DNA of 64,000 bases from Parcubacteria group bacterium (GTDB lineage Bacteria; Patescibacteriota; Minisyncoccia; UBA10092): positions 17,191 to 81,190 of the forward strand of contig JACPLW010000005.1 in assembly GCA_016186325.1 (NCBI GenBank). The letters run 5' to 3'. The notes under the pieces were generated by a model. It saw only the letters and a list, made by a program, of their open reading frames with translations, was not told the origin of the DNA and ran no database searches. The position numbers and the translations under genes were made by a program. This document shows, piece after piece, positions 3,375-30,930 of the stretch (the stretch's first letter is position 1; every line of letters starts with the position of its first letter).

Positions 3375-5819
3375 CTATATTACAACATTTATCAATCGTC
3401 CCGGCACAAATATGGTTTTTTTAATTTTAGCGCCACTAATGTATTTTTTAATAATTTCTCGCGATAAAACTATTTCTTCAACTTCAGGGCGTTTCAATTT
3501 TTTTGAAACGCGAACTTTATCGCGCATTTTGCCATTTACTTGAATTACTAGATCGTATTCCTCTACTTCAATAAATTTCGGGTCATATTTTGGCCATACT
3601 TCAAGATGAATCGATTTTCCCCGACGCTTTCGGTCGGAGCTCCGATCCCGAAGGGCGTCGGAGTTATTTCCTATTTTTTGCCAGAGTTCTTCCGTAAAGT
3701 GCGGCGCAAAAGGAGATAGAAGTTTCAAAAAAATTTCGGCCGTATTTTTTGTTATATCGGTTTTTTCAATCTCATTAAAAAGAATCATTAAAGCGCTGAT
3801 TGCCGTATTGAATCTGAAATGCTCTATATCATCCCCTACTTTCTTAATCGTCTGATGTAATAATTGCTGGTATTTGGTATTTGGTATTTGGTATTTGGTA
3901 TTTTGAGATTTAAAATTTAAAAATTTATTCCACACTCGATCTAAAAATCTCTTTATTCCTAAAATCCCGTTAGGATTCCACGGTCCGCCGTTGCTGTACT
4001 CGCCCATAAAACACAAATACATTCTAACCGTATCGGCGCCGTATTTTTTAACCAATTCGTCCGGGTCAACAACATTGCCGCGAGATTTAGACATCCTCTG
4101 TCCATCGCTCCCCAAAATATCGCCCTGATGACGCAAAGATACAAAGGGTTCGTCAAATTCAAGATAACCGGAATCCCGAAGAGCTTTAACAAAAAATCTT
4201 GAATAAAGGAGATGTAAAACCGCATGCTCAGCGCCTCCGACGTACATATCAACCGGCAGCCAGGCTTTTAATTTGTCTTTTGAAGCAAATTGTTTTTTGT
4301 TTTTCGGATCGGTGTAGCGCAGAAAGTACCACGAAGAATCCACAAACGTGTCCATTGTATCCGTCTCTCTGGTTGCCTTGCCCTTGCAATTCGGACACTT
4401 TACATTAACAAAACTTTTTACGCGCGCTAATGGCGACTTGCCTCCGGCGACCGGTTTAAAGTTTTTAAGCGGCGGTAGTTTTACCGGTAATTTATTTTCC
4501 TGAACCGGTACTATCCCGCATTTCTCGCAATAGATAATTGGAATAGGGGCGCCCCAATACCGCTGGCGGGAAATGACCCAGTCGCGCATTTTATATTGAA
4601 TTGAAAAACTACCAAGCCCCTTTTCCTTAAGTTCTTCGGTGATTTTTTTCCCTCCTTCGACAGACTCTAAACCTGTAAACTCGCCGGAATTTACCAATAA
4701 CCCGTCTTCTATTACATTTATAGTTGGCAAATTAAATTTTTTGGCAAATTCAAAGTCCCGCTCATCATGGGCAGGCACCGCCATAATGGCGCCCGTGCCA
4801 TAGTTCATTAAAACATAGTCCGATACCCAAATTGGAATTTCCTCCTGATTTGCCGGGTTAAAAGCAAAAGAGCCGGTAAAAACGCCTGTTTTTTCTTTCT
4901 CTAAGCTCGTTCTTTCGAGCTCTGTTTTAAGATGAGCATTCGCAATATAATGGCGGACATCTTCTTTTTGTTCCTTGGTTGTAACTTTTTCCACCAATGG
5001 ATGTTCCGGCGAAAGTACCATATAAGTAGCGCCAAAAAGCGTATCAGCCCGTGTTGTAAACACTGGAATTTCTAATTTCAAATTTCTAATTTCGAATTTA
5101 ATCAAAGTTCCTTCCGATTTCCCTATCCAGTTTTTCTGCATCAGTTTGGTGCGCTCCGGCCAATCCAACTTATCCAAATCTTTCAGTAATTCTTCCGCGT
5201 AATCCGTAATCTTTAACATCCATTGGTTAACTTCTTTTTGGATAACCAAAGTATCGGGGTGGCGCCAGCATCGGCCGTCAATAACCTGCTCGTTTGCTAA
5301 AATTACCTGATCTTTAGGACACCAGTTAGCTAATGCCTTTTTCTTGTAAGCAAGCCCCGCTTTATGCATTTGAAGAAACATCCACTGGGTCCATTTGTAG
5401 TATTTGGAATCAGCTGTAATCACCTCGCGCGAAAAGTCATAGATATTGCCCATTGACTTAAGCTGTTCTCTCATTGTTTTGATATTTTTATAAGTCCAAG
5501 TTTTTGGGTGAATTTTGCGCGCAATCGCCGCATTTTCGGCCGGAAGACCGAAAGCGTCAAAACCGATGGGGCTCAAAACATTGTAACCCTGCATTCTTTT
5601 AAGACGCGCGAAAACATTGGCCGGCGCATAATTATACCAATGCCCCATATGAAGATTGCCCGACGGATACGGAAACATCGTAAGATGGTAAAAATTTCTT
5701 CGCCCTCCGAAGCCTTTGGCGAAGGATGGGTTTTTGTCCTTAACTTTATAAATACCGGATTTTACCCAGTATTCTCTCCACTTTTTTTCTACTTTTATAG
5801 CGTTATACTTTTCAATCAT
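3375..5819 (-). CDS. leuS: Leucyl-tRNA synthetase
   Basis: Class I HMGH and KMSKS motifs (MSKSRGN) and overall LeuRS architecture. It contains an extra SFAKGFGGR segment before the MFPYPSG motif and an in-frame heptamer tandem repeat. Confidence 0.9.
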   Translation of the reverse strand: MIEKYNAIKVEKKWREYWVKSGIYKVKDKNPSFAKGFGGRRNFYHLTMFPYPSGNLHMGHWYNYAPANVFARLKRMQGYNVLSPIGFDAFGLPAENAAIARKIHPKTWTYKNIKTMREQLKSMGNIYDFSREVITADSKYYKWTQWMFLQMHKAGLAYKKKALANWCPKDQVILANEQVIDGRCWRHPDTLVIQKEVNQWMLKITDYAEELLKDLDKLDWPERTKLMQKNWIGKSEGTLIKFEIRNLKLEIPVFTTRADTLFGATYMVLSPEHPLVEKVTTKEQKEDVRHYIANAHLKTELERTSLEKEKTGVFTGSFAFNPANQEEIPIWVSDYVLMNYGTGAIMAVPAHDERDFEFAKKFNLPTINVIEDGLLVNSGEFTGLESVEGGKKITEELKEKGLGSFSIQYKMRDWVISRQRYWGAPIPIIYCEKCGIVPVQENKLPVKLPPLKNFKPVAGGKSPLARVKSFVNVKCPNCKGKATRETDTMDTFVDSSWYFLRYTDPKNKKQFASKDKLKAWLPVDMYVGGAEHAVLHLLYSRFFVKALRDSGYLEFDEPFVSLRHQGDILGSDGQRMSKSRGNVVDPDELVKKYGADTVRMYLCFMGEYSNGGPWNPNGILGIKRFLDRVWNKFLNFKSQNTKYQIPNTKYQQLLHQTIKKVGDDIEHFRFNTAISALMILFNEIEKTDITKNTAEIFLKLLSPFAPHFTEELWQKIGNNSDALRDRSSDRKRRGKSIHLEVWPKYDPKFIEVEEYDLVIQVNGKMRDKVRVSKKLKRPEVEEIVLSREIIKKYISGAKIKKTIFVPGRLINVVI
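3870..3904. repeat. Heptanucleotide tandem repeat (gtatttg)x4-5 inside leuS
   Basis: ggtatttggtatttggtatttggtatttggtatttt; encodes QNTKYQIPNTKYQ. Confidence 0.6.
5701..5730. repeat. GC-rich element in-frame in leuS (shares GAAGCCTTTGGC with the tatD copy)
   Basis: cgccctccgaagcctttggcgaaggatggg encodes the extra PSFAKGFGGR before MFPYPSG. Confidence 0.45.
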
Positions 5820-6673
5820 ATTTTAAATAAAGCTTTAGCATTATTATGAGTTTGGGTCGCGACTTTGTCAAAACTTAAGCCCTTCCATTCGGCAATTTTT
5901 CGCGCCACAAATTCAACGTAAGCCGGTTCGTTGCGTTTTCCTCGATGCGGCGCCGGCGCCGCAAATGGCGAATCGGTTTCAATAAGAATTTTATCAAGTG
6001 GGACATACTCCACCGCCTCTTTATATTCGTCGGCAAACGTTATTGGTCCGGCAAAAGAAATATAAAATCCTAAATCTATAAATTTTTCAGCGGTTTCTTT
6101 GGAACCGACAAAAAAATGGGCAACGCCGTTACCGCTTGAATCAGGAATTGTGAAGTATGAATTAAGAATATCAATCGCGTCTTCGTAAGCATCTTGACTT
6201 CCAGCCGATGGACGGCAATGTAAAATAATCGGCTTGTTTAATTCTTTCGCCAGTTCAATTTGTTTAATAAAAATATCTTTCTGTTGACTTTTAGTTCTTG
6301 TTTGCGACAATCCGCCTTTGCCAAAGGCTTCGGCGGATGCTCTTTTTTGAAACCGCTCGTTTCGCTCGCGGGCAAAAAAGGCATAATCCAGTCCGCACTC
6401 GCCTATAGCGACGACACTTTGATCTTTTGCCAATTCTCTATATTTACCAATATCAAAATTTTCTTCTAAATTATCATTCGGGTGTAAACCAATAGAAGCC
6501 CATAACAAATCCGGGTATTTTTTAGTTAGTTCAATGGCTTTCTTAGATTCCTCTAAATCAGTTCCAACGCTTATAGCTTTAATACCCGCTTCTTTTAGCC
6601 GGCCAATCATTTCCTCACGATCATCATCGTATTGAGGAAGATGAAGGTGACAATGAGAGTCAAATAATGTCAT
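5816..6673 (-). CDS. tatD: TatD-family metal-dependent deoxyribonuclease/hydrolase
   Basis: N-terminal DSHCHL metal-binding motif and TatD layout. An extra AEAFGKGG segment is encoded by a GC palindrome. Confidence 0.8.
   Translation of the reverse strand: MTLFDSHCHLHLPQYDDDREEMIGRLKEAGIKAISVGTDLEESKKAIELTKKYPDLLWASIGLHPNDNLEENFDIGKYRELAKDQSVVAIGECGLDYAFFARERNERFQKRASAEAFGKGGLSQTRTKSQQKDIFIKQIELAKELNKPIILHCRPSAGSQDAYEDAIDILNSYFTIPDSSGNGVAHFFVGSKETAEKFIDLGFYISFAGPITFADEYKEAVEYVPLDKILIETDSPFAAPAPHRGKRNEPAYVEFVARKIAEWKGLSFDKVATQTHNNAKALFKI
6312..6336. repeat. GC-rich nested palindrome in-frame in tatD
   Basis: ccgcctttgccaaaggcttcggcgg (outer ccgcc/ggcgg, inner ctttg/caaag) encodes AEAFGKGG. 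Confidence 0.5.
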
Positions 6674-11100: not shown

Positions 11101-12492
11101 TTAATCTTCAAGTTGTTTTTTAAAATAATCCACTAAATCTTTAACTGCTACCCTTTCCTGCTTCATCATGTCCCTATTGCGAACTGTGACTTTTTTGTCT
11201 TCAAGCGAGTCAAAATCTACGGTTATGCAAAATGGCGTCCCAATTTCATCTTGCGCATAATAACGTTTCCCGATATTGCCGCGGTCATCCCAAGCGACCA
11301 TAAAATTTTGTTTTAATTCGTCGTAAATCTCTTTCGCTTTATTCACCAATTCGGGCTTATTTGCCAAAAGCGGAAAAACAGCAACCTTATAGGGTGCTAA
11401 TTTTGACGGTAACTTTAGTAAAACTCTGTCATTATCTTCTGCGTAATGTTCTATTAAAACCGCTAAAATGGATCGATCGACCCCCCAAGTCGGTTCAATC
11501 ACATGCGGCCAAAATTCTTCACCGGTTTGAGAATCCCTGTAAGGCGCTGTTTCTTTATAATGATTTCTCAAATCAAAATCGGTTCGATAAGCCAAACCGT
11601 AAAGTTCGTTCTTACCGAAGGGAAAATCATATTCAAAATCTATTGTCCGCTTTGAGTAATGGGCGCGTTTATCTTCGGGTACTTCAAGTTCATAAATATG
11701 TTTTTTATCCAAGCCTAAATCTTTTTCCATCCAATCATGCATTTCTTTCCTCCAATATTCAAAATGTTCCTGCCAATCTTTGTCCTTTTTCGGCACCGGA
11801 ATAAAATATTCAATTTCCATCTGTTCAAATTCACGAGTTCTGAAAATAAAATTCCCCGGCGTAATTTCATTCCTGAATGCTTTGCCGATTTGGGCAATGC
11901 CAAACGGCACGGTTTTTCTGCTTGTATCCAAAACATTTTTAAAATCGACAAACATTCCTTGGGCCGTTTCTGGACGCAAATAAACAACATTCTCTCTACT
12001 TTCTACAGGCCCGAGATTAGTTTTAAACATTAAGTTAAACTGCCTTGGGATAGTCCAGTCATGAACTCCGCCATTCGGACATTTAATATTTAATTTAATA
12101 AGATTCTTTAGTTGCTTAATAGGATCAATATCGTGAACAATAGGTTCAGGATATTCCAGAGCAATTAAAATATCGCTCCGCTCACGATAATTACATTTTT
12201 TACACTCAACCAATGGATCGTTAAAAGTCGCAACATGCCCGCTCGCTTCCCAAACTTTTGGATTCATTATTAAAGCCGAATCAATACCAATGATATCGTC
12301 GCGATTTTGAACAAACTTTTTCCACCACAGTTGCTTAATATTGTTTTTAAGTTCAACGCCTAATGGACCATAATCCCAGGAATTAGCCAATCCGCCATAA
12401 ATTTCACTGCCGGGAAAAATAAATCCCCGCCTTTTGGCAAGCGATACAATTTTTTCCATTAAATTTTCTTGGTTATCTTTTGTTTGCGCCAT
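11101..12492 (-). CDS. glyQS: Glycyl-tRNA synthetase, alpha2 (GlyQS) type
   Basis: Class II GlyRS N-terminus (RRGFIFPGSEIYGGLANSWDYGPLG) and a length of about 460 aa. Confidence 0.85.
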   Translation of the reverse strand: MAQTKDNQENLMEKIVSLAKRRGFIFPGSEIYGGLANSWDYGPLGVELKNNIKQLWWKKFVQNRDDIIGIDSALIMNPKVWEASGHVATFNDPLVECKKCNYRERSDILIALEYPEPIVHDIDPIKQLKNLIKLNIKCPNGGVHDWTIPRQFNLMFKTNLGPVESRENVVYLRPETAQGMFVDFKNVLDTSRKTVPFGIAQIGKAFRNEITPGNFIFRTREFEQMEIEYFIPVPKKDKDWQEHFEYWRKEMHDWMEKDLGLDKKHIYELEVPEDKRAHYSKRTIDFEYDFPFGKNELYGLAYRTDFDLRNHYKETAPYRDSQTGEEFWPHVIEPTWGVDRSILAVLIEHYAEDNDRVLLKLPSKLAPYKVAVFPLLANKPELVNKAKEIYDELKQNFMVAWDDRGNIGKRYYAQDEIGTPFCITVDFDSLEDKKVTVRNRDMMKQERVAVKDLVDYFKKQLED

Positions 12493-12606
12493 TTATATAA
12501 ACTGATTAAACTCAAAAATAATTTCAGAAACTATAAGCCATAATAACATAATTTCTAACTAATTTACAATATTAAACAAATATTTGTTTACGATTAAAAA
12601 TCGATT

Positions 12607-12642
12607 CCCCTCAATTTATTGCTATAGCAAGAAATTGAGGGG
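12607..12642. promoter_or_regulatory. 36-bp near-perfect palindrome with a CTATAG core (candidate operator upstream of glyQS, or terminator of the PaaX-like gene)
   Basis: Read directly: cccctcaatttattgctatagcaagaaattgagggg. A 16-bp perfect AT palindrome aaacaaatatttgttt lies at 12574..12589. Confidence 0.4.
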
Positions 12643-12669
12643 ACAAAATTTTATTAACTAATTTCTTTA

Positions 12670-13230
12670 TTAAACAATTTTAAAAAATTGCCGCAAGTCA
12701 CCCTCCCGCTTATCTATAGACTCTACAGTACAATAATTCACATAACGACTAATTGACAGAAACTCGCAAATAAAATCTATCTCGTTTTGACAATCATAAG
12801 GATAAACAAAAACGCTCTCTTGTAAATGATACAGCCCCAAATCTCTTAATTTATTGGATAGAGCGTTTCTTTCTTTTTTCTTTTTTTCCGGAATATCAAA
12901 AATTACCAATCGCCATTTTTTATCCCACTCTTTAGTATTTAATAACTCTATGTCATCATAATCAAATCGTTTTAATAAATTTCTGCCATTAGCGGTAATT
13001 TTTACATAAATATTATCGCCCTTTTCTACCAATTCTACCAATCTTTTATTGTTCAACCGTTTTACGGCATCATGAATACGTCGTTTATCAATTTTATCCC
13101 AATTTCTGCGCCAGCGCATTAATGGTTTTAAAAGTTGGGCAACATTGGGCGCGAATAGCGACGATAAAATTAATGTGCCGGAAGCGGCTATAAATAAAAC
13201 GTCTCTGGTTAACGATTTTTTGTGCAGCAT
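12670..13230 (-). CDS. PaaX-like transcriptional regulator homolog (N-terminal hydrophobic segment, winged helix, PaaX/Cas2-like fold domain)
   Basis: The motif WRLVIFDIPEKKKKERNALSNKLRDLGLYHLQESVFVYP matches the PaaX core (W..VVYD.PE..R..LR..L...GFG.LQ.SVW..P). A winged-helix-like segment precedes it. Paralog at 25847..26416. Confidence 0.45.
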   Translation of the reverse strand: MLHKKSLTRDVLFIAASGTLILSSLFAPNVAQLLKPLMRWRRNWDKIDKRRIHDAVKRLNNKRLVELVEKGDNIYVKITANGRNLLKRFDYDDIELLNTKEWDKKWRLVIFDIPEKKKKERNALSNKLRDLGLYHLQESVFVYPYDCQNEIDFICEFLSISRYVNYCTVESIDKREGDLRQFFKIV

Positions 13231-13305
13231 GTAGTTTTTTTAATTTTGTATACTAAGTTATATTTTTCATTAACTATTTAGTAATCACTTGTTTATATTA
13301 CCAAC

Positions 13306-13351
13306 ATAATATCCTCAATTCCTGACTATAGCAGGGAATTGAGGATATTAT
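13306..13351. promoter_or_regulatory. About 46-bp imperfect palindrome with the same CCTCAATT...CTATAGC...AATTGAGG core, 75-120 nt upstream of the PaaX-like gene
   Basis: Read directly: ataatatcctcaattcctgactatagcagggaattgaggatattat. Confidence 0.4.
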
Positions 13352-13423: not shown

Positions 13424-13452
13424 TAACTAAAAAAGCTGGGATTTCCAGCTTC
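13424..13452 (-). terminator. Rho-independent terminator after the lipoprotein gene
   Basis: On the minus strand, hairpin agctgg/ccagct followed by tttttt. Confidence 0.5.
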
Positions 13453-13459
13453 GTAAGGG

Positions 13460-13960
13460 TTATTTATCAAATAATGTCCATTTACTGAACCACGTTTCAA
13501 TCCCGTCGAGTGTAATTGCAGCGCCTATGGGTTTCCCGTCAGCACCGAAAGTCACCTCTACTTTATCAGGACTTTGGGCATGATGGATTAGCCAACTGCC
13601 ATCTGGCTGCGGTACGGCAATCATGTGATCTGGGGTATCGCCCGAAACTGGATCACGATCTTTGTCGCACGACCAAGCTTTAAATCCTACTTTTCCAAAA
13701 TATGAATATACCCCGAGCTTCATTCCATTGTAATGGATATAATATTTCCGCGTACCGATTGTTACGTTCTCTCCGTTCTTCGTTTGCACTTCAATCAAGT
13801 AATCTGAGGGAATATCTGCGCGCTTTGCCCAACCAGAACTTTTTTCATCTGGCACTGCACCATCGGGCAAAGGAATACATTTATTTGCTGAATTTACCGG
13901 TAACTGAACACAAGCTGCAAACAGTAAAACAACGGGAATCAAAAAAACCGACTTTAACAT
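13460..13960 (-). CDS. Putative lipoprotein
   Basis: Signal peptide with a lipobox-like LLFAAC sequence; no recognisable domain. Confidence 0.4.
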   Translation of the reverse strand: MLKSVFLIPVVLLFAACVQLPVNSANKCIPLPDGAVPDEKSSGWAKRADIPSDYLIEVQTKNGENVTIGTRKYYIHYNGMKLGVYSYFGKVGFKAWSCDKDRDPVSGDTPDHMIAVPQPDGSWLIHHAQSPDKVEVTFGADGKPIGAAITLDGIETWFSKWTLFDK

Positions 13961-17094: not shown

Positions 17095-20000
17095 TTACAT
17101 TTTGGCAATACCTATCCAGATATCCTTGCTTTCCAACTTAAAATGACGGTCAATAAGCAAACCGTCTTTAATTACGCCGACAAATTCAATTTTTCTCGCG
17201 CCGACTTCGGAAGTTAAAGTTTTTTCCCATTTCGAAATAATTTTTTGGATATTTTCTTCTCCTTTCATATAAACCACTATCGTTTCTTTAGGCGTTAAAC
17301 CTCCGTCTTTTCTCATACCTTGAATCTGGCGGGCTATTTCTCTGGTCAAGCCCTCTTCTTTCAGTTCGGTGGTAATTTTTGTGTCTAATTCTATTTTATC
17401 GCCAAAAACAATTTCTTTGACATTTACCTCATCTTTAATAAGATCTAAAAGTTCTGGGTATTTTTTCAACCCGGTTTCGGCAATGGTAAGCGCTTGAAGC
17501 GGCTGGCGCACTTTGATGCCCGCTTCCGCCCGAAGAGCCAGTGCTTCGGCAGAAATTTCTCTAACTAGGCCCATTTGTTTTTCTAATTTTAAATCAATAA
17601 GTTTTTTATCGGCTTTTGGCCAGTCGCATAGATGAACCGATTCCGGCATTTTATCTCTTTTCAAAAACAAATAAATTTCTTCCGATAAAAACGGCAGAAA
17701 CGGAGAAATAACTTTTACTAAATTCAAAAGCACGAAATAAAGCGTTTCGGCAGCCTCCTCTTTTTCTTTTTTAGATTTTGGCCTCTGAAATCTCTCCCGA
17801 GAACGCCGTATATGCCAAAGGGAAAGATCGTCAATAAAGAATTCTTCGATAGCCCTGCTGGCGTAAGCCGGATTATACTTATCCAGATTTTGGGTAACCT
17901 TTTCTATCAGATTATTCAGACGCGACAAAATCCAAAAGTCTAACAAATTTTGAGGATTGGTGCCGCGCCCGCCTAAATTTCCGGTGGAAATTTTGGCGGG
18001 TAAATAAGTTTTAAAAAAAATAAAACTATTCCAAAAATTAATAAGTTTCCTTTCGGATTCTTTAGCGGCGCCGTACCCAAATTTTAAGTTATCCGCCGGA
18101 TTCTGTTTAACATACATCCAGCGCATAACGTCAACGCCGATTTTTTCCGCCGCCTCGTCAAACCAGATGGCATTTCCTTTTGATTTATGCATCTCCTCTC
18201 CTTTTTCATCCCGAACCGAAGCATAACCGAAAACTGTTTTCATTGGCGGTAATTTTTCTAAAACAGTACTCATTACGATAAGAGAATAAAACCAATTTTT
18301 AAATTGTCCGGGAAAAGACTCGCAAACCAATTCTGCGGGAAACCATTTGCGCCAAAATTTTTTGCCCGGCACGTTACTGCCATCGGGCAGTTTTACGTGC
18401 TCATTAAAATATCTCATCGTTGAGTAGGGAACGATTCCGGCATCCAGCCAGGGATTGCCGACATCGAGAATACGCGAAGTTTTTTCATCGCACTTGGGAC
18501 ACTTAATCTTAATTTCGTCAACGTAGGGCCGATGCAAATCTAAATCGCCTTCATTATTATAGGGCCAATTATGGCCCGCCATTTCAACAACGGAACCAGT
18601 TACTCCGTCAATGCTAAACTTTTCAAATGCTTCTTCATTTTTATAACCCTGGTAGGAACTGGCGGCCGCAATTATCGGATTAGCATGGCTTACTATCAAA
18701 ATCGTTTTGCCTTCATATTTCCTGTCCGTTTCTTTCAAAAAATCCATCATCCTTTTTTTGACATCTTTTAAGTTTTCACCGCCGCTTGGTCTGACGACAT
18801 ATTGATCCACCTTGCCACCAAAAAGCGAATGCCAATCCCCATGAGTGCGCCCGTTATAAGCCCCGGAGTCGTGTTCACGGAGCCGCTTGTCATAAATTAT
18901 TTTTTGGCCCAAAGCGCCGGAAATAATTTGGGCGGTTTCTTTCGTCCGCAATAAGTCGGAAGAAAACACCAAATCCACGCTTTTTTTCTTAAACCACGGA
19001 ACAAGTTTTTCAATTTCTTTAGCACCCCTTATGGTTAATAAGTACTTCTTTTTTTCCGGATAAGAAGAAATGATTTTTAGCCGATTGTTTTCCGCCTCGC
19101 CGTGACGCAGAAAAATATAATGATTAAGTTTTTTTGGCGAGAACTTGTCAAAATCAGCGAGCGAACCGATAACCTCAAAATTGCCGCACCGGCACTCAAA
19201 AATGGGCAGCGCCAATCCCCAATATCTTTTCTTGCTAATCAACCAGTCGGACATATTTTTCAGCCAGTCGATTTCCCTCTCCAGACCAAAAGAGGGAATC
19301 CATTTTATTTTTTTAGCTATTTTTATAAGCGGATTCCTTAACTTGTCCATTGATATGTACCACTCATCGGCAATTTTCCATACCAATTCGGTTTTGCACC
19401 TCCAGCAGATAGGATAACGATGGGTATATTTGGGGGCGCTAAAAAGAAATCCGGCGGTTTTTATGTAATCAATTATTATTTCGGGGCGTTCTTTCGCGTT
19501 TTGGCCGCTAAATTCTCCAAGCCCTTTCACATAAAAAGCTGCGTCATTAATCAAATCAATTGCCGGAATTTTTATTTTTTTCCCCAATCTGTAATCTTCG
19601 GTGCCTTGACCGGGTGCGATATGAATCAACCCCGTTCCTTCGGTTTCACTAACCGGCAAAATTCGTGAGTCGGTGGCAACAACCTTGTGAATAAAGCCGG
19701 ATAAAGCTTTTTTAACAGCTGGCAAGTTATCAAAAGGTGATTTGTAAGTTAAATCGACTAACTCTTTTCCTTTAAAAGTCCTGATAATTTTAAGGTTTAA
19801 TCTTTCAGCTGCTTCTTTTATAAGATAATAGGAAGCTCCGCTTCCAAGTTCACTTGGAAGCGGAGCTTCCAAGTCAGTTGCTTCCACGTAAATTTTGTCG
19901 GGATCTACGGCTACCGCCGCGTTTCCGGGAAGAGTCCAGGGAGTTGTCGTCCAAACCAAAAGATAGGTATTTTTTTTGAAAATGTTGGAAGCTCGGTTTC

Positions 20001-20628
20001 CAACAATAGGATATTCTATGTAAACGGAATCATGGGTAACTTCTTTATAATCCTCGGTAAGTATCTCATGCTGGGAAATGGCCGTACCGCAACGCCAGCA
20101 CCAGGGAACAACATCGTGCCCTTTGTAAAGCAGTCCTTTTTCTTTACATTTTTTCAAAAAGTGCCAGATGGCAACATTGTTTTCATTAGACATTGTGTAG
20201 TAACTGTTCTTCCAATCCATCCATTGGCCCAACCTGATTGATTGATTTGTTTGAATCGCGGAATACTTTCTCACGCGCTCTTTACACTTTTCAACGAATT
20301 TGGCAATGCCATATTTTTCAATGTCTTTTTTTGACTTAAAACCCAATTCTTTTTCCACCTCAACTTCAACCCAAAGCCCTTGGGCGTCAAATCCGTTTTG
20401 AAACCTCTGGTCAAATCCTCGCGCCGCTTTATATCTTTGGAACAGATCTTTGTAGGTTCTCCCCCACGCGTGATGAACTCCCATTGGATTATTGGCGGTA
20501 ATCGGCCCGTCTAAAAACGACCAACTTTTTTGGCCTTTAATTTTTTTCCGCAGCTTCTCAAAAATTTGATTATTTTGCCAAAAATCAAGGATTCTTTCTT
20601 CAGTTTTGGGACCAAAAGATTCTATCAT
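17095..20628 (-). CDS. ileS: Isoleucyl-tRNA synthetase (type 2) with an inserted histidine-phosphatase (PGAM/SixA-like) domain
   Basis: HIGH-like motif PMGVHHAWG; editing-domain motif TTPWTLPGN; KMSKS motif EEMHKSKGN. About 165 aa between residues ~500 and ~665 (nt ~18636..19131) carry FLRHGEAENN, LRTKETAQII and LIVSHANPI, the histidine phosphatase hallmarks. Confidence 0.9.
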   Translation of the reverse strand: MIESFGPKTEERILDFWQNNQIFEKLRKKIKGQKSWSFLDGPITANNPMGVHHAWGRTYKDLFQRYKAARGFDQRFQNGFDAQGLWVEVEVEKELGFKSKKDIEKYGIAKFVEKCKERVRKYSAIQTNQSIRLGQWMDWKNSYYTMSNENNVAIWHFLKKCKEKGLLYKGHDVVPWCWRCGTAISQHEILTEDYKEVTHDSVYIEYPIVGNRASNIFKKNTYLLVWTTTPWTLPGNAAVAVDPDKIYVEATDLEAPLPSELGSGASYYLIKEAAERLNLKIIRTFKGKELVDLTYKSPFDNLPAVKKALSGFIHKVVATDSRILPVSETEGTGLIHIAPGQGTEDYRLGKKIKIPAIDLINDAAFYVKGLGEFSGQNAKERPEIIIDYIKTAGFLFSAPKYTHRYPICWRCKTELVWKIADEWYISMDKLRNPLIKIAKKIKWIPSFGLEREIDWLKNMSDWLISKKRYWGLALPIFECRCGNFEVIGSLADFDKFSPKKLNHYIFLRHGEAENNRLKIISSYPEKKKYLLTIRGAKEIEKLVPWFKKKSVDLVFSSDLLRTKETAQIISGALGQKIIYDKRLREHDSGAYNGRTHGDWHSLFGGKVDQYVVRPSGGENLKDVKKRMMDFLKETDRKYEGKTILIVSHANPIIAAASSYQGYKNEEAFEKFSIDGVTGSVVEMAGHNWPYNNEGDLDLHRPYVDEIKIKCPKCDEKTSRILDVGNPWLDAGIVPYSTMRYFNEHVKLPDGSNVPGKKFWRKWFPAELVCESFPGQFKNWFYSLIVMSTVLEKLPPMKTVFGYASVRDEKGEEMHKSKGNAIWFDEAAEKIGVDVMRWMYVKQNPADNLKFGYGAAKESERKLINFWNSFIFFKTYLPAKISTGNLGGRGTNPQNLLDFWILSRLNNLIEKVTQNLDKYNPAYASRAIEEFFIDDLSLWHIRRSRERFQRPKSKKEKEEAAETLYFVLLNLVKVISPFLPFLSEEIYLFLKRDKMPESVHLCDWPKADKKLIDLKLEKQMGLVREISAEALALRAEAGIKVRQPLQALTIAETGLKKYPELLDLIKDEVNVKEIVFGDKIELDTKITTELKEEGLTREIARQIQGMRKDGGLTPKETIVVYMKGEENIQKIISKWEKTLTSEVGARKIEFVGVIKDGLLIDRHFKLESKDIWIGIAKM

Positions 20629-22420: not shown

Positions 22421-22888
22421 ATGGCAATATTCTCCGAAAACCGAAAGGCTCACTTTGATTACGAAATCCTAGAAATTTTTGAGGCAGGCTTAGTGTTGTC
22501 TGGCGCCGAGGTTAAGTCAATAAAAGGAGGGCGCATGAACTTAGCCGGCTCTTACGTTAACTTCCATAATGGCGAACCCTATCTAATCGGCGCTTCAATC
22601 GCTCCTTATCAGCCAAAGAACCAGCCATCCGACTACGACCCGTCTCGCTCAAGAAAATTGCTTTTGAATAAAAAAGAAGTTGACTATATTTCCGGTAAAA
22701 CAAAACAAAAAAGCTTGACTTTAGTGCCTTTAAAGGTATATAATAAAGGCCGCCGAATTAAACTGGAATTTGGTTTGGTCAGGGGTAAAAAGCAGTATGA
22801 CAAACGCGATGCTATAAGCCGACGAGAAATAGAGAGAGAAATCGACAGAAAAATTAAACAAGAGCATGGGAGTGACGGGCTTCGATAG
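22421..22888 (+). CDS. smpB: SsrA-binding protein
   Basis: Typical SmpB sequence (GAEVKSIKGG, basic C-terminal tail). Confidence 0.9.
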   Translation: MAIFSENRKAHFDYEILEIFEAGLVLSGAEVKSIKGGRMNLAGSYVNFHNGEPYLIGASIAPYQPKNQPSDYDPSRSRKLLLNKKEVDYISGKTKQKSLTLVPLKVYNKGRRIKLEFGLVRGKKQYDKRDAISRREIEREIDRKIKQEHGSDGLR

Positions 22889-23275
22889 AACTTGAAAATT
22901 AAATATGCAGGACGAGGATATCTCGTAACCTTGAAAATCCGTCCCGCAGTTGCGGGATGCGACAATCCCCGAGATCCAGCAAATAACTGGCAAAACAAAT
23001 TTAACTCCTGCTTTAGCTTTTGCTTAAGTAGGTTTTACCCCGCGAAGCTTTAGCGTAGTGGGGCATCGGTCGCCTGACGCCCAGTAGGACGATACCGGTG
23101 TCAACAATTGGGCTCTAACCTGAAAATTCTTCGGTTCGGGTTGAACTAAAGAAGAAATTGGGAACCTTCCATTTTGACTGTTTCAAGGAGGATTTTCAAA
23201 AAATTCAAACAGCCTACGCCTGTAGAAATATTTAATTAAAAATTCTAGATGCGAGTTCAACTCTCGCCACTTCCA
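22868..23275 (+). ncRNA. ssrA: tmRNA (ssrA), one-piece; 5' end overlaps the last 7 codons of smpB; CCA not encoded
   Basis: 5' GGGAGTG-ACGGGC-TTCGATAG resembles the tmRNA 5' acceptor strand plus TTCGA D-analog. 3' end GCGAG-TTCAACT-CTCGC (T-arm, T-loop identical to E. coli tmRNA), then CACTTCC (pairs with GGGAGTG) and discriminator A. Internal tag-like frame ...ggc aaa aca aat tta act cct gct tta gct ttt gct taa gives GKTNLTPALAFA followed by a stop. Confidence 0.7.
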
Positions 23276-23448
23276 TTCGACTCGTCTCTCGCTAACGCTC
23301 GAGACTCGCTCATGGCAAGCCACTCGTTGTAATTAACTTGAGTCGCTCACTATTGAACAAGTCGAATGTCCCGAGCGTAGTCGAGGGACACAATAAAATA
23401 TCAGATAATTATCTGGTATTTTATTTTTATAGATGCTATATAATTTTT

Positions 23449-25201: not shown

Positions 25202-25245
25202 AATAAAAAATAAAAAAATAACAAATGAGTAAATGTAGCCGGTCA

Positions 25246-25282
25246 TGCGATAGTTGGACAAACTGCAATTTAATACTAACTC
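25246..25282. promoter_or_regulatory. Copy 1 of a ~32-nt repeated element (tgcgat-gttggacaaactgca-tttaa), upstream of the MGMT-like gene
   Basis: Matches 25797..25828 at 29 of 32 positions. Its reverse complement contains TTGTCC, an 18-nt spacer, then TACATT. Confidence 0.4.
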
Positions 25283-25734
25283 TCTAGATAAATCGGTTGC
25301 CCGCTTTCTAATGATTCCAGGCACTTTACAACCCTTACCATGGCTTTCGGATTTAATAATTTTATAGCTTCCTGCGGCTTAGAAAATTTATATTCGCTAA
25401 TCTCCTTTTGGTCTATATTTATGCATTTAATCTTTTCTATTCCCAAAATTCCACCGAAAAATATAAATTTTAATGCATCGCCTTTTTCACGATTATGGGT
25501 GTAATCAACCAATAAGAGATCTTTAATTTTAACGTACAATCCTATTTCTTCTTTCACTTCGCGTCTACAACCCGCTAGTGGCGACTCGTCTTTATCAACT
25601 ATTCCTCCTGGTAAAGTCCAATTTGGTTTATAAGATGGTTTAACAATTAAAATTTCTTTTTTCTTGTTAAGAAACAGAGCCGCTGACGCAACTCTTTTCC
25701 TTGGTAAATTTTTATAAAATTTTTTATCTATCAT
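25276..25734 (-). CDS. NUDIX hydrolase
   Basis: Nudix box GGIVDKDESPLAGCRREVKEEIGL (G-x5-E-x7-REVxEExG). Confidence 0.8.
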   Translation of the reverse strand: MIDKKFYKNLPRKRVASAALFLNKKKEILIVKPSYKPNWTLPGGIVDKDESPLAGCRREVKEEIGLYVKIKDLLLVDYTHNREKGDALKFIFFGGILGIEKIKCINIDQKEISEYKFSKPQEAIKLLNPKAMVRVVKCLESLESGQPIYLES

Positions 25735-25796
25735 TATATTTTCTTTAATTTAAATTTTTTAATCCAGTCCTAATCTTCTAACTTAATTTCAGTTAT

Positions 25797-25828
25797 TCGT
25801 GCGATCGTTGGACAAACTGCATTTTAAA
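25797..25828. promoter_or_regulatory. Copy 2 of the ~32-nt repeated element, upstream of the NUDIX gene
   Basis: tgcgatcgttggacaaactgcattttaaactc. Its reverse complement gives TTGTCC, an 18-nt spacer, then TGAAAT. Confidence 0.4.
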
Positions 25829-25846: not shown

Positions 25847-26416
25847 TTAAAGTAAGCCGAACCTATTCCTTAAGTCGAACTCAATATCGACATCTCTCAC
25901 TCTTAAGTATCTTATATAAGGTACTAATTCAAAAATCTCAGCTATAAAATCAATTTCATTTTTACATTCATGGGGATGGATAAAAACACTTTTTTGCATT
26001 GGATAAAAACCAATTTCCTTAAGTTTTACAGCCAGCGCCGTTCTTCCTTTTTTCTTATCTTCGGGAATATCAAAAGTTACTACGCGCCATAATCTATCCC
26101 ATTTTAGAGGTTTTTTGATTTCAATTTTATCTAAATTGTAAACTAAAACCTTTTTTTGACCCACTTCAGTTAAGACAAGGCGAACAGTGCCATCTTTATT
26201 TTCTTTATAATCTATAATTTTTGCCTTGTATAATTTCTTTATTGATTCTCTTAAACTGCGCTCATTTACCTTTCTCCACTCTTTGGCAACGTCTTTCAAA
26301 ATCTTAAAGTAGGCATCGGGACGGCCCGTCAAAGATAAAACGAGTCCCGCTTGCAAAAGCAATAAAACTTTTTTTCCCACGTGTCCTAAATGTCGCATTA
26401 TCCAAGATAGTATCAA
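25847..26416 (-). CDS. PaaX-like transcriptional regulator homolog (paralog of 12670..13230)
   Basis: WRVVTFDIPEDKKKGRTALAVKLKEIGFYPMQKSVFIHPHECKNEIDFIAE; N-terminal hydrophobic segment plus a wHTH-like region. Confidence 0.45.
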   Translation of the reverse strand: MILSWIMRHLGHVGKKVLLLLQAGLVLSLTGRPDAYFKILKDVAKEWRKVNERSLRESIKKLYKAKIIDYKENKDGTVRLVLTEVGQKKVLVYNLDKIEIKKPLKWDRLWRVVTFDIPEDKKKGRTALAVKLKEIGFYPMQKSVFIHPHECKNEIDFIAEIFELVPYIRYLRVRDVDIEFDLRNRFGLL

Positions 26417-26542
26417 AAAATTTTGCGGTCGGTCAAGCGATCGCAGGACGAGCTACAAATCAACTGAAACAAAAAAATATTGAAACCAAAACCTTTAAAC
26501 AAATACCACGCGCGGTAAAATCGAAGGGGAAATGTCGCTATT

Positions 26543-28878: not shown

Positions 28879-28900
28879 GTATTTTATTCTAACACATTAG

Positions 28901-28972
28901 CGTCCCTGCGAGGAATTGAACCTCGATCTCAGCCTTCGGAGGGCTGCGCTCTATCCGTTGAGCTATAGGGAC
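28901..28972 (-). tRNA. tRNA-Arg (anticodon CCG)
   Basis: Reverse complement folds as a cloverleaf: acceptor GTCCCTA/CAGGGAC; D-arm GCTC-AACGGATA-GAGC; anticodon stem CAGCC/GGCTG with loop CTCCGAA; T-arm CGAGG-TTCAATT-CCTCG; discriminator G; no encoded CCA. Confidence 0.8.
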
Positions 28973-30439: not shown

Positions 30440-30930
30440 GATAACTCCAACATGTCGCTTACCGGGAAGGGGCCCCGCTTTGCGGGGCAAAGCAAGAATC
30501 GAAGTCCGACCTTGCATCAGACTTAATAACATCTTCTTAACAATCTTTAAACATTCTGTTAACAGCATATAAACATGGAAATAAATAATAAATAATTCAT
30601 TTTCCTCGCCCCGTATACAACTTGTTGTTGTACGGGGCTCGCGCGCTCGCTCCGCCAGCTCTTCGCTCGCTGTCCGATGAAAGCGTTTTACCCCGCCATG
30701 GCGGGGACCATGCTAAAACGCTTTCATAAGTTTCGGAAAATAATTTATTTATCATTTCTCCACTCAAAAACAAGTGAATTCGGGCTCAGTTATTTTTTGA
30801 GGCAGGATATATTTGTTCTCGAGCGGGGTTATGAGCGCGAAGCGGGCATGGTGTCCCGCGAAGCGGGACGAGCGAGCGCGAATCCCTGAGCGAGCATCCC
30901 GCAACTGCGGGGAGCGAGGAAAGCGAGAGA
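30440..30930. repeat. Non-coding island packed with GC-rich palindromes/hairpins (element nest or structured RNA)
   Basis: Contains ggggccccgctttgcggggcaaagc, ccccgtatacaac...gtacgggg, atgaaagcgtttta-ccccgccatggcgggg-taaaacgctttcat, tcccgcgaagcgggacgagcgagcgcg and atcccgcaactgcgggga. Long-range complements (tttcctcg with cgaggaaa; cgcgctcgctc with gagcgagcgcg). No ORF above 70 aa. Confidence 0.5.

Follow-up and report, generated by a model that had tools for sequence, protein, structure and literature searches.

Two long palindromes that bracket a small gene in a 64,000-nucleotide stretch of a Parcubacteria genome (contig JACPLW010000005.1; this whole stretch is called the window below) are probably cognate sites at which the protein encoded in between binds double-stranded DNA, a reading that rests on the comparison of sequences across many related loci. 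The gene, at 12670..13230 on the minus strand, encodes a 186-residue product that we call mini-PaaX, with a helical, putatively winged-helix region at residues ~1-90 and a Cas2-like PaaX_M domain at residues ~100-186. Judged by sequence, it appears to be of a known kind, the autoregulated PaaX-type winged-helix repressor; what would be new here is its minimal, multi-paralogue form, with sites that bracket the gene. We found no description of this protein family or of its sites in the searchable literature.

The downstream palindrome (site A, 12607-12642, with CCCCTCAATTTATTGCTA and TAGCAAGAAATTGAGGGG meeting at a centre between 12624 and 12625) begins 28 nt past the stop of the gene, and the upstream palindrome (site B, 13306-13351, with ATAATATCCTCAATTCCTGACTA and TAGCAGGGAATTGAGGATATTAT meeting between 13328 and 13329) lies 76-121 nt ahead of its start; in the 40-bp frame used for the whole family, the two occupy 12605-12644 and 13309-13348. 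They share a CTATAGC core, have CTATAG exactly on the dyad axis, and rank among the longest inverted repeats listed for the window. The pattern CCTCAATT-N16-AATTGAGG matches the window twice, at sites A and B, compared with no match in 100 dinucleotide shuffles. The coordinates that an earlier, sequence-only reading of this DNA had assigned to the palindromes, to their core and to a shorter AT palindrome (AAACAAATATTTGTTT, see below) all hold on re-reading of the sequence. That reading had also proposed the two sites as operators through which a PaaX-like regulator would control both itself and the nearby glycyl-tRNA synthetase gene. Conserved footprints, bracketing dyads, site types that vary together with the protein and an overlap with the promoter support the first half of this proposal, but not the tie to the synthetase gene.

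The family to which mini-PaaX belongs is large, with more than 100 clusters at 64-83% identity and 349 representative clusters (50% identity) at E<1e-30; the best 120 matches of a profile-based protein search all fall in the same close subfamily. Individual genomes carry several copies, four in one metagenome-assembled genome (MAG) and three in another, and these per-genome counts are incomplete because the scan of MAG contig proteins covered 11 loci from 5 MAGs. At every homologous locus examined (loci carry L numbers here), the gene stands between two dyads built to one design. A generic dyad scan returned 37 sites in ~250 kb compared with ~0.25 in shuffled sequence, and once metagenome loci had been added, the collection comprised 101 dyads, 59 of which flank 41 site-gene-site modules. 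Together with the result for the window pattern (0 in 100), this shuffle control led us to reject a chance origin of the dyads.

Arms and core are alike within a locus and unlike between paralogue groups. In an oriented table of 26 modules of subfamily 1, both dyads were detected in 15; their core is common to the pair in 15/15 and their arm type in 14/15, with L014 as the exception. The window and its orthologues, whose module stands before glyS, carry the arm ATCCTCAATT with the core GCTATAGC; L010 and L011, between fpg and holA, carry GGTCGCATAA with CCTATAGG; L005 and L013, before def or rpsL, carry ATCCGCATAT with CCTCGAGG; L016 and L017, where the module is divergent from proS, carry GAACGCA with CCTATAGG; and L009, L012 and L015, whose neighbours are not annotated, carry GTATCA(T/C)AA with either CCTCGAGG or CCTATAGG. 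The start of the predicted recognition helix covaries with the arm type (D(K/R)RRI, DYKRI, DRRLI, KRQRI). Each type of dyad and paralogue is found at one syntenic position across genomes, which points to old paralogues and not to recent insertions. Conservation in related genomes, suggested as a check when the palindromes were first described, is borne out, since the sites are kept as footprints with arms at a fixed spacing, and the module protein is 76-83% identical in genomes where the adjoining glycyl-tRNA synthetase (GlyRS) is 49-72% identical. Where an extra gene stands beside the regulator, as with a MazG-like open reading frame (ORF) in L036/L038 and a homologue of a 166-aa ORF in L041, the dyads shift outward so as to enclose the whole unit. 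Dyads of two or three paralogue types also occur together, 47-125 bp apart, within one intergenic region (L013:14761-14931, L014:4677-4742 and L013:10637 onward), and a ATCCGCATAT dyad is paired with a GACCGCATAA-like dyad in two genomes. At L014, the upstream dyad differs in type from the downstream dyad, which suggests cross-regulation among paralogues.

The window itself holds a second member of the family at 25847..26398 on the minus strand (183 aa, Pfam PaaX_M 6.5e-19, 35% identical to the first). The sequence-only reading had placed this gene at 25847..26416 and stated that it lacks the palindromes; the gene is there, with the ATG at 26398 as its likely start, and although it has no dyad of the CCTCAATT type, it is flanked by CGATCG-core dyads of its own. 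The upstream dyad, at 26421..26460 (centre 26440), consists of GTAGCTCGTCCTGCGA and TCGCTTGACCGACCGC and is accompanied by a -35 hexamer TTGACC at 26431-26436 and a -10 hexamer TACTAT at 26407-26412; TTGAAT stands at the same offset in the syntenic L019 and in L018/L020. Since TTGACC-18-TACTAT ends 8 nt ahead of the ATG, the mRNA of this paralogue may be nearly leaderless. Its downstream dyad is at 25785..25824 (centre 25804; TGCAGTTTGTCCAACGA and TCGCACGAATAACTG), and a relaxed scan detected a third, weaker dyad one gene further downstream at 25231..25270 (centre 25250; AAATGTAGCCGGTCATGCGA and TAGTTGGACAAACTGCAATT), whose right half has nearly the same sequence as the right half of the downstream dyad. 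These last two dyads bracket the ORF 25276..25734. The second gene belongs to subfamily 2, with 464 homologues that are typically 183 aa long and a dyad consensus, taken from L018-L020, of TGCAGTT-N7-CCGA/TCGG-N7-AACTGCA, where the slash marks the axis.

Across the family, the dyads have a tripartite 40-bp design, in which symmetric arms and a symmetric core of 6-8 bp are separated by a free 4-bp spacer at invariant spacing; those of the window measure 36-46 bp, with arms ~27 bp apart, and the upstream one overlaps the gene's own putative promoter, as described below. At positions 1-4 and 12-16 from the centre, the two halves nearly always mirror each other, and 40-68% of the module-flanking sites have mismatches at positions 5-8. 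In nearly all listed sites, the four bases at the centre form a self-complementary TATA or TCGA, the exceptions including L011 (TATG) and L016 (TATA/A). In addition, CCTCAA...TTGAGG pairs are separated by N=20 in 68/68 cases, also where the interior has decayed, and no site contains an insertion or deletion. As far as aligned sites can tell, this pattern of constraint points to a protein on duplex DNA rather than to an RNA hairpin.

The same palindromes could nevertheless function when transcribed, as hairpins that serve as intrinsic or bidirectional terminators or that stabilise mRNA, in which case the protein would be incidental to them or would bind RNA. The hairpins predicted for them are stable (-23 to -26 kcal/mol, z ~-6 to -7; -25 kcal/mol for site A), a point that counts against binding to duplex DNA as the explanation, and downstream dyads and many orphan dyads, which have no family gene nearby, sit just past stops, in convergent pairs also at 14-50 nt from either stop. 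Some downstream dyads (L021, L023, L036) also have GC-richer arms followed by T-runs, and the junction of gatB and miaA bears a dyad of subfamily 1 in some genomes and one of subfamily 2 in another. As hairpins, however, nearly all of these sites would have a self-complementary loop and an unpaired 4x4 spacer, and several downstream dyads would be 8-bp arms around a 20-nt interior that does not pair; the length of the loop does not change in any site, whereas the loops of hairpins normally vary in length. Mismatches on the sense strand show no bias towards G.U (G.U against A.C is 20:20 in upstream and 25:18 in downstream dyads), the upstream dyad comes after a canonical terminator and overlaps a promoter, and a U-tract is missing at most sites (there is a T-run 6 nt past the stem at site A and none at site B). 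The terminator scan calls neither of the window dyads, and Rfam returned nothing at gathering score, with sub-threshold matches alone at E<=1, mostly miRNA-precursor hairpin look-alikes that fall far short of their cut-offs. Given this balance, we regard a role as transcribed hairpins as quite improbable.

Upstream dyads lie 42-99 nt before the start codon throughout the family. In four genomes, the upstream spacer of the window's module has diverged save for an invariant block of ~43 nt, TATCCTCAATTCC.TGCTATAG..AG.AATTGAGGATATTAT. On the minus strand, a -35-like hexamer (13329..13334; CTGCTA in the window and TTGCTA in relatives) falls in the dyad core, and the -10 hexamer TATTAT (13306..13311) follows 17 nt later, abutting the gene-proximal arm. 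TATTAT is invariant on the gene-proximal side in the four genomes, and no such conservation is seen at its mirror position on the far side. From this alignment, TTGCTA-17-TATTAT is in all appearance a sigma-70-type promoter buried in the dyad. Subfamily 2 presents a similar picture, with TTGAAT or TTGACC at +5..+10 of the upstream dyad and a -10 element 17-18 nt later; the TTG is gone from most downstream copies of this subfamily and kept in L020, where the two dyads are essentially identical. Overall, promoter-like geometry was detected in 9/24 upstream dyads, 3/26 downstream dyads and 5/68 orphan orientations. Because the promoter lies inside the upstream dyad, occupancy of the dyad should occlude it, and the expected outcome would be negative autoregulation.

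The ORF upstream of the module, 13460..13960, has a canonical intrinsic terminator of its own at 13432..13452 on the minus strand (GAAGCTGGAAATCCCAGCTTTTTTAG; terminator scan), so that the upstream dyad is not the terminator of this ORF, and the order of terminator and then dyad recurs in L041. With a canonical terminator preceding it and a promoter within it, we rejected the upstream dyad as a plain terminator. The ORF encodes 166 aa, has a signal resembling that of lipoproteins (..LLFAAC), matches no Pfam family and is variably present between a CLIPPER-domain gene and the module, being absent in L007; it has homologues at L041:256-870 and L008:6033-6548, and the copy in L041 is bracketed by two near-identical dyads.

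Downstream dyads are found 24-145 nt past the stop in all groups, whatever gene follows. The gene that follows is glyS in the window's orthologue group only, where synteny extends over at least 20 loci, and holA, def, rpsL, a small ORF or a convergent gene in the other paralogue groups. As the downstream dyad is present regardless of the next gene, it belongs to the module, not to glyS. From the sequences, we see it as the 3' boundary of the module, which could act as a looping partner, as a roadblock, or as both; a role as terminator is another possibility.

We weighed whether the regulator might still control the transcription of glyS (11101..12492, minus strand; a single-chain class II glycyl-tRNA synthetase with Pfam tRNA-synt_2b and HGTP_anticodon domains) with site A as its operator. 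The order of module, dyad and glyS is kept in ~20 loci spanning 49-72% GlyRS identity, yet the neighbouring genes are all syntenic in any case. In L007/L008, the dyad ends ~12 nt ahead of the putative glyS -35, but the distance from the centre of the downstream dyad to the glyS start ranges from ~85 to 173 nt, with no fixed geometry, and in orthologous downstream dyads it is the arms that are kept at fixed spacing while the interior, including its promoter-like hexamers, decays, leaving no conserved promoter. The stretch from the module to glyS holds no further terminator-like site, which would allow read-through into glyS from the autoregulated promoter. Control of glyS by a T-box or another known leader RNA was considered and set aside, as Rfam has no match there. 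Dedicated operator control of glyS is thus unlikely, and the specific link that the sequence-only reading had drawn to the synthetase gives way to a generic part of the module; read-through could still tie the module to glyS expression, but the comparative data do not point to this link in particular.

Between the downstream dyad and a putative glyS promoter lies the perfect 16-bp AT palindrome AAACAAATATTTGTTT (12574-12589), one of 5 perfect 16-mer palindromes in the window, where 1.2 are expected; it is mostly kept in L001, and TATTTG alone is kept in L007/L008. The candidate promoter itself (12540..12569, minus strand; TTGTAA-18-TATTAT with TG, promoter scan) holds the extended -10 element TGTTATTAT, whose counterpart in the alignment of relatives is TGTTATT(A/C/T)T, and glyS thus appears to have an extended -10 of its own below the downstream dyad.

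To what extent the protein is a PaaX was judged from domain searches and structure prediction. Pfam assigns PaaX_M (PF20803; E 8.9e-22, 77 bits against a cut-off of 24) plus a weak and short Cas2 match, and matches neither the PaaX N-terminal domain nor PaaX_C, the protein ending at residue 186. The PaaX equivalog TIGR02277 reaches 35.7 bits against a cut-off of 264.6 and aligns over profile positions 32-150 of 279 only. AlphaFold2 models residues 100-186 as a ferredoxin-like beta-alpha-beta-beta-alpha-beta domain with a predicted local distance difference test (pLDDT) score of ~90; for the model, the best Foldseek match is PaaX of E. coli W (8a39, 140 aligned columns), the next is the Cas2 structure 3exc, and the PaaX-like proteins 3kfw and 3l09 are further matches. 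A profile search of PDB sequences likewise returned Cas2 3exc, together with a weak match to the recognition helix and wing of PadR (residues 42-88). We read the product of 12670..13230 as a putative mini-PaaX, composed of a winged helix and a Cas2-like domain without the C-terminal inducer-binding domain. Of the winged helix-turn-helix and PaaX core attributed to it earlier, the core is thus confirmed by PaaX_M, and the helix-turn-helix is suggested by the weak PadR match and a low-confidence model.

The N-terminal segment had also been described as hydrophobic and unusual. Over 19 residues, its Kyte-Doolittle mean reaches 1.62 at best, a borderline value, and the homologous segment of the paralogue, at 1.42, is too little hydrophobic for a membrane span; the segment probably forms the first helix of the winged-helix bundle, in a part of the structure model that is of low confidence. 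We considered a membrane anchor through this helix unlikely, in view of the borderline hydrophobicity and also because a single span with the N-terminus inside would place the DNA-binding domain outside the cell.

In the databases, this family bears the PGAP/NCBI name "CRISPR-associated endonuclease Cas2". The label stems from a 38-residue stretch (residues 106-143 only) that barely passes the NCBIfam cut-off for TIGR01573 (cas2), with 28.7 bits against 24.5. An aspartate aligned with the catalytic aspartate of Cas2, at the end of strand 1, is invariant in the family (FDIP). We rejected a CRISPR/Cas2 function, the window being without a CRISPR array and the domain match only partial, and no cas1 gene or Cas1 domain is found in any listed neighbourhood of family genes; given the lack of CRISPR context, the Cas2 label is a systematic mis-annotation across Parcubacteria. 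A defence system was discarded in the same way, as PADLOC gave only the same partial Cas2 matches, and so was a phage or viral origin, with no relatives in IMG/VR.

Dyads also occur away from the modules. A metagenome scan with the window's dyad type identified 43 loci, ~19 of which have the module with glyS and ~22 of which have no family gene nearby; most of these ~22 orphan dyads are perfect palindromes of 36-40 bp, and all but L063, which is near a contig end, are intergenic. About 10 lie between convergent genes, 14-50 nt past both stops, as between gatB and miaA (~72% protein identity), between a 191-aa gene and a UvrD/PcrA-type helicase gene, and between a glycosyltransferase-like gene and recG; ~8 lie between co-directional genes (for example after rplK and after guaB) and two between divergent genes. 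In loci chosen without regard to dyad sequence, an orphan is present in 3/19 regions between convergent genes, 1/22 between divergent genes and 2/62 between co-directional genes, and the orphan-bearing regions number 6 in 268 kb. In two MAGs, the arm type of an orphan is that of a module elsewhere in the genome (L013:2126 resembles the L008 module, and L010:5281 the L017 module).

The distribution of orphans, together with several other observations, weighs against a simple autorepressor. Orphans are found in all kinds of intergenic region, unlike the sites of a classical repressor regulon, and are ~twofold over-represented between convergent genes (3/19 against 3/84, Fisher p=0.07). The coding sequence of tatD also harbours a conserved dyad of one type. 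The -35 element of the window, CTGCTA, matches just 3/6 positions, and the promoter scan offers an alternative, non-conserved promoter upstream of site B. On the side of the protein, no winged-helix family passes threshold in the Pfam scan, and AlphaFold2 gives residues 1-100 as helix-helix-helix-hairpin at low confidence (pLDDT 35-59). Finally, adjacency and co-variation may stem in part from the shared ancestry of orthologous loci.

In the tatD case, three related genomes (L007:14919-14958, L055:11044 and L056:7707) carry a dyad, GACCGCATAAGATCTCTC followed across the axis by GAGA..., in frame in a loop of TatD after the GECGLD motif (LDRIRSLEINYAVR), reminiscent of in-frame palindromic elements such as those of Rickettsia; the TatD of the window (5816-6673) has an unrelated insertion of 34 aa at the same loop.

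Wide occurrence of the palindromes in positions unrelated to promoters had been named beforehand as a sign of a mobile repeat, and such occurrence is found in part, in the orphans between convergent genes. The orphan distribution differs from that of a classical promoter-proximal regulon. It would accommodate dyads that act as boundaries or roadblocks and, with lower likelihood, a history like that of repetitive extragenic palindromic (REP) sequences and their REP-associated tyrosine transposases (RAYTs); the orphan sites themselves suggest a boundary or roadblock role, or else a small regulon. Taken further, the family might act mainly as protein-dependent transcription-unit boundaries and less as repressors of particular genes, in the form of roadblock terminators or insulators at the 3' ends of genes and between convergent genes, with paralogues that set their own levels through the dyad at their promoter, or alternatively might be a domesticated Cas2-nuclease analogue of REP/RAYT; we think it unlikely that either describes its main role.

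A related possibility is that the dyads are mobile elements of a REP-like or att-like kind, and that they are dispersed or rearranged by the Cas2-like protein, acting as a domesticated nuclease or recombinase. The layout invites the comparison, with cognate palindromes flanking the gene, a type of its own for each paralogue and dispersed orphans, as in RAYT/REP systems, but each type stays at one syntenic position even though the neighbouring proteins are only 50-75% identical, and the positions of orphans are conserved as well (gatB/miaA). The copy number is low, with ~6 orphan-bearing regions in 268 kb, and the protein is more tightly constrained than an aminoacyl-tRNA synthetase. Cores that resemble restriction sites (CTATAG, CTCGAG, CGATCG), the in-frame dyad in the variable tatD loop, accessory genes beside the upstream dyad between near-identical dyad copies (L041, L036/L038) and the invariant aspartate of FDIP at the Cas2 catalytic position would all fit mobility, against which stand the absence of HUH, DDE, tyrosine or serine recombinase domains in Pfam and NCBIfam searches, of relatives in viral contigs and of any target-site duplication seen. 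Integron attC-like cassettes, which the bracketing and the variable accessory genes had brought to mind, were rejected as a separate explanation, with no integrase present and with dyads in perfect register, and kept only within this one. In sum, mobility of the dyads strikes us as very unlikely.

Returning to duplex binding by the encoded protein, the module could work as follows. A two-fold-symmetric oligomer of mini-PaaX would read the tripartite 40-bp dyad, its recognition helices touching the outer arms at positions 9-17 from the centre (TCCTCAATT in the window) and the central palindrome CTATAG, with its flexible pyrimidine-purine steps, being read or bent at the axis, while the 4 bp between arm and core would not be read. 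With the upstream dyad occupied, the gene's own promoter would be shut. Protein bound at the downstream dyad would most likely loop to the upstream site over ~700 bp, and/or might block RNA polymerase from crossing between the module and glyS. The unit is one of several paralogous site-gene-site modules per Parcubacteria genome, each with private arms, and orphan dyads of each type lie in other intergenic regions, often at the 3' ends of genes.

Other features of the window were noted in passing. A perfect inverted repeat of 19+19 nt at 19831-19870 (GGAAGCTCCGCTTCCAAGT tc ACTTGGAAGCGGAGCTTCC) lies inside the 1177-aa ORF 17095..20628; it is not a family dyad and is absent from the 70%-identical L007 orthologue. 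GC-rich perfect palindromes are present at 1549-1576, 5947-5962 and 30691-30706 (for example ACCCCGCCCCGCAG joined to CTGCGGGGCGGGGT at the axis) in a genome of 40% GC. The window also carries a tmRNA gene at 22868-23278 (tag GKTNLTPALAFA) and a tRNA-Arg(CCG) gene at 28900-28972.

Candidate-phyla-radiation bacteria have tiny genomes with few recognisable regulators, and to our knowledge almost none of their regulatory DNA is experimentally known. The modules described here offer a putative protein-to-site code, with arms, core and spacing defined, for what may be a major transcription-factor family of Parcubacteria, on a scale of at least six paralogue groups and hundreds of 50%-identity clusters, conserved more tightly than an aminoacyl-tRNA synthetase; they also correct a systematic database error, the label "CRISPR-associated endonuclease Cas2". 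If the orphan dyads at gene ends were protein roadblocks, they would constitute an unusual means of delimiting transcription units in streamlined genomes.

PaaX, the phenylacetyl-CoA-responsive repressor of E. coli and Pseudomonas, is the closest known system. It is the best structural match, and in it (8a39, 3l09), as in the model of mini-PaaX, an N-terminal winged helix is followed by a Cas2-like PaaX_M domain. PaaX of E. coli binds an inverted repeat of ~39 bp, TGATTC-N27-GAATCA, and represses its own promoter (review PMC9493321). The putative sites of mini-PaaX resemble this in being long, widely spaced inverted repeats at the protein's own promoter, and differ in being tripartite with a central palindrome, in bracketing the gene and in being private to each paralogue. 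PaaX proteins are also longer (~300-316 aa compared with 186 aa), with an inducer-binding C-terminal helical domain that mini-PaaX lacks, and the family genes stand beside glyS, an M16 peptidase gene, holA, def, rpsL, proS, polX and gyrA, with no paa genes nearby. With Cas2, mini-PaaX shares the ferredoxin-like domain and the conserved aspartate at the end of strand 1; Cas2 (PF09827), however, is a stand-alone protein of ~90 aa accompanied by cas1 and a CRISPR array, whereas mini-PaaX has 186 aa, a predicted DNA-binding half, and several copies per genome beside housekeeping genes.

In RAYT/REP systems, a single-copy gene is flanked by its own palindromes, several paralogues can each have their own palindrome family, inheritance is vertical, and extra copies of the palindromes are intergenic, often at the 3' ends of genes. 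Mini-PaaX genes are likewise flanked by cognate palindromes of one type per paralogue, but the protein is unrelated, with no HUH/Y1 (IS200/IS605-like) domain in Pfam or NCBIfam, and its dyads are symmetric on the double strand in perfect register, whereas REP sequences are imperfect single-strand hairpins; the dyads also appear to number tens at most rather than hundreds, and the upstream copy carries a promoter. Auxiliary operators that flank the regulated unit or lie inside it are familiar from lambda CI (OL/OR), LacI (O1/O2/O3) and GalR (OE/OI). As in those systems, the dyads here lie hundreds of bp apart around a unit, with one of them on the promoter, an arrangement compatible with looping, and the difference is that the putatively looped unit is the regulator gene itself, in a layout that is invariant throughout the family. 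Lrp/AsnC regulators, or feast/famine regulatory proteins (FFRPs), similarly fuse a winged helix to a small alpha/beta ferredoxin-like oligomerisation domain, but they are among the weaker Foldseek matches (template modelling score, TM, ~0.25-0.28), have no sequence match to mini-PaaX and have sites of a different architecture.

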